The notes under the pieces: generated by a model
Seen by the model: the letters and a program-made list of their open reading frames with translations, nothing else
Database searches by the model: none
Told to the model about the DNA's origin: nothing
Assembly (NCBI RefSeq): GCF_058153355.1
Contig: NZ_CM177019.1
Length of the DNA: 64,000 bases
Reading direction: 5' to 3' (one strand)
Translations under genes and position numbers: made by a program
Part shown: in pieces, positions 14,774 to 56,665 of the stretch
How the letters are laid out: the number at the start of each line of letters is the position of its first letter
How positions within the stretch are numbered: the first letter of the stretch is position 1

Positions 14774-14849
14774 TGGCGTCCCCTAGGGGATTCGAACCCC
14801 TGTTACCGCCGTGAAAGGGCGGTGTCCTGGGCCTCTAGACGAAGGGGAC
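14774..14849 (-). tRNA. gltV: tRNA-Glu (UUC) in 16S-23S spacer
   Basis: Reverse complement gtccccttcgtctagaggcccaggacaccgccctttcacggcggtaacaggggttcgaatcccctaggggacgcca = tRNA-Glu. Confidence 0.95.
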
Positions 14850-46550: not shown

Positions 46551-47771
<1,221 letters not shown>

Positions 47772-47849
47772 TCACCACATCAACCAGGCAACATGCCCGA
47801 CTTGTTGAATGCAATAAACAGAAGGAAAAAACAGGGAGGAGAAAAGAAG

Positions 47850-47925
47850 TGGTGCTGATAGGCAGATTCGAACTGCCGACCTCACCCTTACCAAGGGTGC
47901 GCTCTACCAACTGAGCTATATCAGC
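47850..47925 (-). tRNA. thrT: tRNA-Thr (GGU)
   Basis: Reverse complement gctgatatagctcagttggtagagcgcacccttggtaagggtgaggtcggcagttcgaatctgcctatcagcacca. Confidence 0.95.
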
Positions 47926-47931
47926 ACATCT

Positions 47932-48006
<75 letters not shown>

Positions 48007-48122
48007 ATCCTGGAACTCGGCTACCTGATTTTCATTCTGCACTGAATATCGAGAGAAGCTCTCTTTATTCGAGCCGGTAAGCGAACTTATCGTCTCGGGC
48101 TACGCCATCGCGTGGCCGAAAT

Positions 48123-48207
<85 letters not shown>

Positions 48208-48215
48208 GGACTTGA

Positions 48216-48291
<76 letters not shown>

Positions 48292-48652
48292 ATCAAGTAG
48301 CGCGCATTCTATGGAGACATGCGAGTTCATGCAACTAAAAAATTGCATAATTTGTTTTATTGGTCACATTTTATGCGACACGATGAAGAAACAGTCGAAC
48401 AGAGGGCAAATTAGCACACTTTTTCAACATCATTGTTCTCAACAATGCGCTCCTTCTAAAGCGCAATTCTTTTTATCAGATGGAATATCTGTCACATTGC
48501 TTTTCAACGATAGCTTCCCGGGAGAGATTTTTTCTTATTATTCCTCCCCATCTGGTGTTACCCTCCTGCCCATTAACCCATTCAACAGAACTGTGACGCG
48601 CCATGGCAAATATCGTTTTGCCGATAGAGCTATGACCGCCAGAAACATGCTT

Positions 48653-56589: not shown

Positions 56590-56665
56590 TGGCGTCCCCT
56601 AGGGGATTCGAACCCCTGTTACCGCCGTGAAAGGGCGGTGTCCTGGGCCTCTAGACGAAGGGGAC
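56590..56665 (-). tRNA. gltT: tRNA-Glu (UUC) in 16S-23S spacer
   Basis: Same tRNA-Glu sequence as at 14774..14849. Confidence 0.95.

Follow-up and report, generated by a model that had tools for sequence, protein, structure and literature searches.

The 116-nt spacer between tyrU and glyT, inside the tRNA operon thrU-tyrU-glyT-thrT-tufB, is an evolutionarily maintained transcribed spacer and not junk. In its stem-loops it is the pairing that is conserved and not the sequence, and the stretch preceding glyT carries a near-invariant 12-nt motif. The likeliest reading is that the spacer acts as a module in processing the multi-tRNA transcript and is not a separate gene. More precisely, we assign a probability of roughly 0.55 to the reading that it is an internal transcribed spacer kept as a modular cis-acting RNA, which would organise the separation of tyrU and glyT by RNase E and RNase P. 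We would classify it as an internal transcribed spacer of the tRNA-tufB operon that is both structured and conserved.

The window, i.e. the whole stretch of 64,000 nt that was analysed, is E. coli-like. The four tRNA genes found by ARAGORN are tightly packed except at one junction (Table 1), and their coordinates yield the same gaps of 8, 116 and 6 nt that the initial annotation had given. The long gap begins directly after the tyrU CCA, a position that RtT RNA takes with respect to tRNA-Tyr. It had been suggested that the spacer belongs to the tufB leader transcript. This is imprecise: the spacer is internal to the transcript and is parted from tufB by glyT, thrT and a 114-nt untranslated region, and no link between the spacer and tufB regulation was found in the present analysis. 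Upstream of thrU, a promoter can be recognised by eye (TTGCAT-17-TAGAAT, followed by a G+C-rich discriminator) that a simple promoter scan missed; given this promoter, the leader before thrU is only about 7 nt long. A terminator-like hairpin lies between it and coaA.

Table 1. Features of the tyrU-glyT region and of related loci. Positions refer to the window, except where a locus (L number) is named.
Feature	Position	Strand	Evidence or remark
coaA	start ~48634	plus	
Terminator-like hairpin	48446-48465	plus	between thrU promoter and coaA
thrU promoter	48295-48335	minus	by eye
thrU, tRNA-Thr(tgt)	48216-48291	minus	ARAGORN; Rfam agrees
thrU-tyrU gap, 8 nt	48208-48215		
tyrU, tRNA-Tyr(GUA) (gta)	48123-48207	minus	ARAGORN; Rfam tRNA 53.4 bits; 3' CCA adjoins spacer
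tyrU-glyT spacer, 116 nt	48007-48122		
A/U-rich spacer start AUUUC	48118-48122	minus	directly after tyrU CCA; candidate RNase E-type single-stranded site
H1, GGCCACGC-GAUG-GCGUAGCC	48098-48117	minus	covariation, 46 relatives; one internal C.A mismatch
H2, GAGACGAU...CCGGCUC	48071-48096	minus	covariation
H3, GAAUA-AA-GAGAG-CUU-CUCUC-GA-UAUUC	48044-48070	minus	segment folding
Inverted repeat gagagaagctctc	48051-48063		contained in H3
Terminator-like site	48051-48063	plus	
A-rich linker AGUGCAGAAUGAAAAUCA	48026-48043	minus	conservation; contains (A)CAGA block
12-nt motif GGUAGCCGAGUU	48014-48025	minus	near-invariant; glyT 5' leader, -19 to -8 relative to glyT +1
Final 7 nt of glyT leader, CCAGGAU	48007-48013	minus	ends at expected RNase P cleavage site
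glyT, tRNA-Gly(UCC) (tcc)	47932-48006	minus	ARAGORN; Rfam agrees
glyT-thrT gap, 6 nt	47926-47931		
thrT, tRNA-Thr(ggt)	47850-47925	minus	ARAGORN; Rfam agrees
tufB	start ~47736	minus	downstream of thrT
tRNA-Glu, two genes	14774-14849 and 56590-56665	minus	
RtT in the tyrU-glyT gap, above gathering score	L008 611-908; L039 632-756; L016 4010-4134; L004 4787-4902; L038 2516-2631		
RtT in the tyrU-glyT gap, sub-threshold	L029 486-637; L033 505-618; L099 494-620		
H3 resembling a weak intrinsic terminator	L019 3924-4037; L114 8589-8707		examples from Citrobacter/Enterobacter/Klebsiella-type loci
Pseudomonas sRNA P26 (RF00630)	L056 1576-1641; L038 8509-8585; L085 5872-5933		Rfam, above gathering score

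Within E. coli the spacer is practically fixed: it is present in 5420 of 5426 complete genomes, typically (median) at one place in each, and 5415 of the 5420 carriers have it at 99% identity or more. Taken by itself, the E. coli sequence gives little sign of structure. The transcribed strand has a folding energy of -31.8 kcal/mol (z = -0.64; 50 of 200 shuffles are as good) and contains no inverted repeat with a 6-nt exact seed, although the short inverted repeat pointed out in the initial annotation, gagagaagctctc, is indeed there. Since the structure was no better than chance in E. coli alone, we turned to a comparison with relatives, and it is through covariation among these, not through the single sequence, that the earlier description of the spacer as a structured element holds.

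A number of other identities were looked for and rejected. The statement that the spacer is not tRNA-like agrees with our searches: neither ARAGORN nor the Rfam tRNA model finds a tRNA or tRNA pseudogene in it, and no Rfam family of any kind matches positions 48007-48122 at E<=10. A comparison of the conserved tail with thrU, tyrU, glyT and thrT gives p values of 0.19-0.99, with tRNA 5' halves likewise not significant, and a cloverleaf was discarded since the closing stem of its four-way junction, pairable in 85.7% of cells, lacks covariation (complementarity p 0.08 order-wide). All open reading frames of at least 20 amino acids overlap tRNAs. Furthermore, 1-nt indels between motif and glyT in Shimwellia, Enterobacter BIGb0383, Buttiauxella noackiae and Symbiopectobacterium would shift the frame of a small reading frame, while the motif stays invariant. 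A promoter in the E. coli spacer was rejected as well, and so was an intrinsic terminator (the third hairpin does not combine G+C richness with a U-tract and is followed by GAUAUUC); a scan of positions 47600-48500 found no terminator-like site on the minus strand. The 120 viral-contig matches to a 14-mer show no extended identity and are attributed to chance. The annotation of K-12 MG1655 has nothing at the matching coordinates 4175557-4175672.

For the comparison the thrU-tyrU junction was fetched from one genome per species, which yielded 120 loci; 112 of them have adjacent tyrU and glyT and form, together with the window, a set of 113 Enterobacterales loci. The tyrU-glyT gap is long in every one (87-483 nt, median 118), and thus no E. 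coli accident, while the flanking gaps measure 3-30 nt between thrU and tyrU (the upper bound being set by the locus search pattern) and 2-13 nt between glyT and thrT. Pairing statistics for the first two hairpins are based on an alignment (A1) of 46 distinct spacers from Enterobacteriaceae and Erwiniaceae, the only families in which the hairpin body can be recognised by sequence with the A1 profile; other families possess different hairpin-rich bodies ahead of the same conserved tail. The conservation across enterobacteria that the initial annotation had proposed to check can thus be seen in the gap and the tail of the 113 loci and in the hairpins of the 46 aligned spacers.

From 5' to 3' the spacer consists of an A/U-rich start, three independent stem-loops, which we will refer to as H1, H2 and H3, an A-rich linker, and the 12-nt motif 7 nt before glyT. 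Compensatory changes were found at all seven pairs of H1 and at seven of the eight pairs of H2, the latter being paired in 92.7% of cells. Over both hairpins together 90.7% of the cells in A1 pair and 14 of 15 pairs have changed on both sides, a level of pairing that was reached by none of 500 shuffles and that compares with 25-46% in controls with a slid register. H1 is also stable in E. coli (-11.4 kcal/mol, inner-pair probability 0.98), H2 is weak there (-4.0 kcal/mol, pair probability ~0.12-0.13). The third hairpin was mis-registered by MAFFT and was therefore folded segment by segment: it is found in 43 of 46 sequences, in 42 with z<-2, and its stem sequences differ widely, with a purine-rich 5' arm (75-100%) and a pyrimidine-rich 3' arm; the E. 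coli version, GAAUAAAGAGAGCUUCUCUCGAUAUUC, folds at -10.0 kcal/mol (z -3.0). The middle position of H1 (A1 columns 18/31; 48114 and 48101 in E. coli) is unpaired in 25 of the 46 species, mostly as A.C or C.A, and resembles a conserved internal mismatch, all neighbouring pairs covarying.

These structures can be assigned to a strand. Within H1 and H2, 82 cells hold G.U combinations, which pair in the sense orientation only, versus 23 holding A.C combinations, which pair only in antisense, and 19 of these 23 fall at one single position. Moreover, among 84 distinct short spacers the sense strand has the lower minimum free energy in 73, the mean difference being 5.6 kcal/mol. The G.U excess and the lower sense energies indicate that the structure belongs to the transcribed operon RNA. 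We consider it most improbable that the plus strand is the functional one, as an antisense RNA, promoter or terminator. The plus strand of the E. coli spacer does fold well (-40.5 kcal/mol, z -3.44), it has a terminator-like site, and the antisense of the tail resembles, by eye, a sigma-E promoter (GGAACTC...TCTG); yet E. coli is an outlier among its relatives in this respect owing to two C.A/A.C mismatches, one each in H1 and H2, the spacing of the promoter-like blocks varies between 14 and 17 nt among genera, and the count of terminator-like sites is 2 against 0.9 +/- 1.0 in shuffles.

Conservation is much stronger in the ~30 nt that lead up to glyT than in the hairpins. The motif GGTAGCCGAGTT occurs exactly in 96 of 113 loci and in 40 of 47 genera, from Escherichia to the Morganellaceae and including an Orbales genome, and is spaced 7 nt from glyT in 76 of the 113 loci; in the 64-kb window it occurs once. 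It is changed by one or two bases in Rosenbergiella, Rouxiella, Tenebrionibacter and Edwardsiella, takes a divergent form in Pragia, and has disappeared only from two reduced endosymbionts, Regiella and Gillettellia. Upstream of it, at a distance of 8-11 nt, an (A)CAGA block can be followed across the order, its ACAG/CAGAAAG being conserved at 90% or more within Enterobacteriaceae. The sequence that joins the motif to glyT reads YCAGGAU in most families, with CAAU or CAC instead in Morganellaceae, and ends at what would, in ordinary tRNA 5' maturation, be the RNase P cleavage site. glyT itself is nearly invariant across the 113 loci. A pairing of the leader with the D-loop of glyT (UAGCC/GGCUA) was discarded, as glyT does not vary and the variants of Pragia and Gillettellia are uncompensated. 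Similarly, no partner of the motif emerged within the operon, where the best sites belong either to the thrU promoter spacer, which is untranscribed, or to folded tRNAs, nor in the 64-kb window including the rRNA operons, where the best site (-18.3 kcal/mol) falls within the range of shuffled sequences (-17 to -22.5).

At the opposite end the first five nucleotides of the spacers contain 76% A+U, versus 55% in the remainder. The RNase E consensus RN|WUU served as the pattern for a search in this part: patterns of this type occur within the CCA and the following 7 nt in 53 of 111 distinct spacers (48%), versus 8.7% of background windows, which corresponds to a ~5-fold enrichment. On sequence grounds RNase E is therewith a candidate for the enzyme that would cut at the A/U-rich start.

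These features can be arranged into a plausible order of events. The A/U-rich, presumably single-stranded stretch right after the tyrU CCA would act as an RNase E-type cut site, while H1, H2 and H3 would hold the operon's one long non-tRNA stretch in a folded state and limit cutting to its flanks. RNase P would then strip the remaining leader from glyT, and the hairpin cassette cut out in between would be a by-product. Such a division of labour would follow the general model in which polycistronic tRNA precursors are first cleaved by RNase E, with 5' maturation left to RNase P (PMC2241853). Compared with the ordinary RNase E/RNase P spacers of E. coli tRNA operons (general model in PMC2241853), the present one is alike in lying between co-transcribed tRNAs and in having an A/U-rich segment by the upstream CCA, and differs in its length (116 nt versus the 8 and 6 nt of its neighbours), its three covarying hairpins and its order-wide 12-mer. 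Against a processing module speak the E. coli sense fold, which is no better than that of shuffles, the weakness of H2, the existence of E. coli tRNA operons that RNase P separates by itself (PMC2241853, PMC4176162), and the fact that Regiella, Gillettellia and Pragia keep glyT despite a lost or variant motif. The latter indicates that the motif is not strictly required to make tRNA-Gly.

The same gap is the site of a known element in other enterobacteria. RtT RNA (Rfam RF00391) is a repeated element after tyrT/tyrV in E. coli, downstream of tRNA-Tyr in the tRNA transcript, and is thus comparable in position to the spacer; it fills the tyrU-glyT gap in five genera. Scores above the Rfam gathering score of 45 bits were obtained in this gap for Acerihabitans (two copies, 125.8 bits), Cedecea sulfonylureivorans (107.5), Dickeya (92.3), Serratia (53.5) and Erwinia psidii (52.3), and scores below it for Serratia silvae (43.8), Erwinia endophytica (32.1) and Tenebrionibacter (28.7). 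These long spacers have a regular construction: wherever a tRNA-Tyr 3' end occurs (..CCACCACCA), be it true or copied, an A/U-rich stretch and hairpins come next, and the last such unit gives way to the basal module with its conserved tail, and then glyT. With the A1 profile a full-length module of the E. coli type was detected directly after the RtT unit of Cedecea sulfonylureivorans (E 4e-18), and the module likewise follows RtT units in Tenebrionibacter and five Erwinia, which indicates that the module behaves as a unit in its own right. In C. davisae the module stands by itself, and this difference within one genus implies gain or loss of RtT units at the tRNA-Tyr 3' end.

The spacer of E. 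coli does not qualify as an RtT. Unlike RtT, it contains no copy of the tRNA-Tyr 3' end (..TCCTTCCCCCACCACCA), and the terminal hallmark of RtT (..AATCCTTCCCCCACCACCA, paired to a 5' GGGGAAGG) is represented by neither string in the 116 nt. The RtT CM finds no match in positions 47600-48500 at E<=10 or in the E. coli locus L043 at E<=1, while scoring the four tyrT-locus copies at 133-137 bits in the same search; pairwise comparisons give p 0.76 and 0.56, and the A1 profile has no match on the tyrT locus. Judging from the RtT-bearing relatives, the E. coli spacer therefore represents the RtT-free basal module of the tRNA-Tyr trailer / tRNA-Gly leader region. A short H1-like sequence, CCAC(A)GCGATG, occurs after the CCA at the same offset in tyrT and tyrU, a weak resemblance (p 0.02). 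A reading of the Rahnella and Yersinia spacers as 'mini-RtT', made by eye, was dropped, there being no CM support at E<=1.

Could the spacer then be a neutral relic, a decayed RtT unit or a decayed extra tRNA gene, without present function? Intact, weak and sub-threshold copies of RtT in the same slot, from 125.8 down to 28.7 bits, would be in keeping with such decay, as would the weak hairpins of E. coli and an arm polarity of H3 like that of the RtT closing stem. We nonetheless think it rather unlikely, as compensatory evolution of H1 and H2 and an order-wide 12-mer are not expected of a relic, and the searches revealed no detectable similarity to RtT (by CM, pairwise or on the tyrT locus) or to the neighbouring tRNAs (p 0.2-0.99). 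Even less credit is due to an internal attenuator, in which H3 would be a leaky terminator setting the ratio of thrU/tyrU to glyT/thrT/tufB; we regard this as very unlikely. The idea is prompted by the H3 of Citrobacter, Enterobacter and Klebsiella-type spacers, AAAAGAGAG...CUCUUUUUUGUU, in which a stem of an A-run and a U-run leads into a U-tract, but the E. coli H3 continues with GAUAUUCAG, without a U-tract, the stems are A/U-rich, and the genes downstream include tufB as well as glyT, described as probably essential in a Salmonella study (PMC6134099). As an observation on these relatives in its own right, the H3 of Citrobacter/Enterobacter/Klebsiella-type loci resembles a weak intrinsic terminator.

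The remaining alternatives start from the motif. RNase E needs only a loose consensus, so that processing alone does not account for an invariant block of 12 nt, and this excess over what a nuclease site needs is an argument for the view that what is excised, the whole spacer or a part, is a functional RNA: a stable product like RtT, or a sponge or decoy with the 12-mer as its binding site. Hairpins of conserved pairing could stabilise a released fragment. Spacers of tRNA operons reportedly do act as sponges, namely 3'ETS-leuZ of glyW-cysT-leuZ and that of metZ-metW-metV, which Lalaouna and colleagues are said to have described in 2015. The likeness to such sponge RNAs consists in a non-tRNA RNA that derives from a tRNA precursor and holds a block more conserved than processing seems to need, the difference in that the conserved block sits here at a 3' end that neither a terminator hairpin nor a U-tail protects, and not next to a terminator as in 3'ETS-leuZ. 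In other genera the slot carries RtT, an RNA released from a tRNA transcript (PMC4986893); the metZWV spacer, in turn, does not bind Hfq on its own (PMC4152368). Considering also that no complementary partner rose above chance in the operon or the 64-kb window, and that K-12 annotation, Rfam families and searchable literature offer no such RNA, we hold a functional product to be a minor possibility. A conformational switch, in which the 5' arm of H1 would pair either with its own 3' arm or with the glyT leader and so time the maturation of glyT, is unlikely in our judgement. In E. coli UUCGGCCAC (nt 3-11) can pair with GUAGCCGAG (nt 99-107) at 8 of 9 positions (-12.3 kcal/mol), a helix that is part of the unrestricted minimum free energy structure with a pair probability of 0.25, and over 46 genera the first 16 nt are complementary to the tail modestly beyond shuffles (mean z -0.60, t -3.4; eight genera with z<-1.65). 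Kosakonia, Entomohabitans and Pseudocitrobacter reach -14.7 to -16.4 kcal/mol, the H1 5' arm of Pectobacteriaceae (AUCCUGG) matches the last 7 nt of the leader (CCAGGAU), and Serratia pairs both segments colinearly. The invariant tail leaves no covariation for this long-range helix, the outer pairs of H1 covary with its own 3' arm (CG:41, UA:5), and many genera including Yersinia, Rahnella and Hafnia have no such complementarity. For E. coli alone it lacks significance (p 0.08), and the genera do not count as independent samples. One may also combine these ideas and suppose that GGUAGCCGAGUU docks some factor, a protein or a small RNA, with the 5' arm of H1 as a toggle, and that the spacer is a switch or decoy which would govern the maturation of tRNA-Gly(UCC) or couple tRNA output to other processes, as proposed for RtT RNA; we consider this a speculative proposal of low probability.

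That there is a spacer here has been evident ever since the sequencing of the operon. The covarying hairpins, the glyT-leader motif and the occupancy of the slot by RtT are new with respect to the K-12 annotation, Rfam and searchable papers; a search of those papers retrieved no description of this spacer. The tufB operon is among the most highly expressed units of the cell, and in Salmonella glyT is the only tRNA predicted to read GGA (PMC6134099). Conserved pairing and a 12-nt block that equals the tRNAs in conservation imply that the handling of the precursor is under constraint. Should the motif do no more than signal processing, the result would be a helpful if small addition to the annotation, and its interest stays modest unless the motif binds something. 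RtT, for its part, is not confined to the tyrT operon, since it comes and goes at the 3' end of tyrU in other enterobacteria, and this turnover offers a simple comparative system for the roles of RtT and of tRNA spacers.

Two observations concern the wider surroundings. The window contains two tRNA-Glu genes, which imply two rRNA operons flanking the tufB region. Several kilobases downstream of tufB, probably in the secE-nusG region, enterobacterial loci contain matches above the gathering score to the Rfam family 'Pseudomonas sRNA P26' (RF00630; Table 1).
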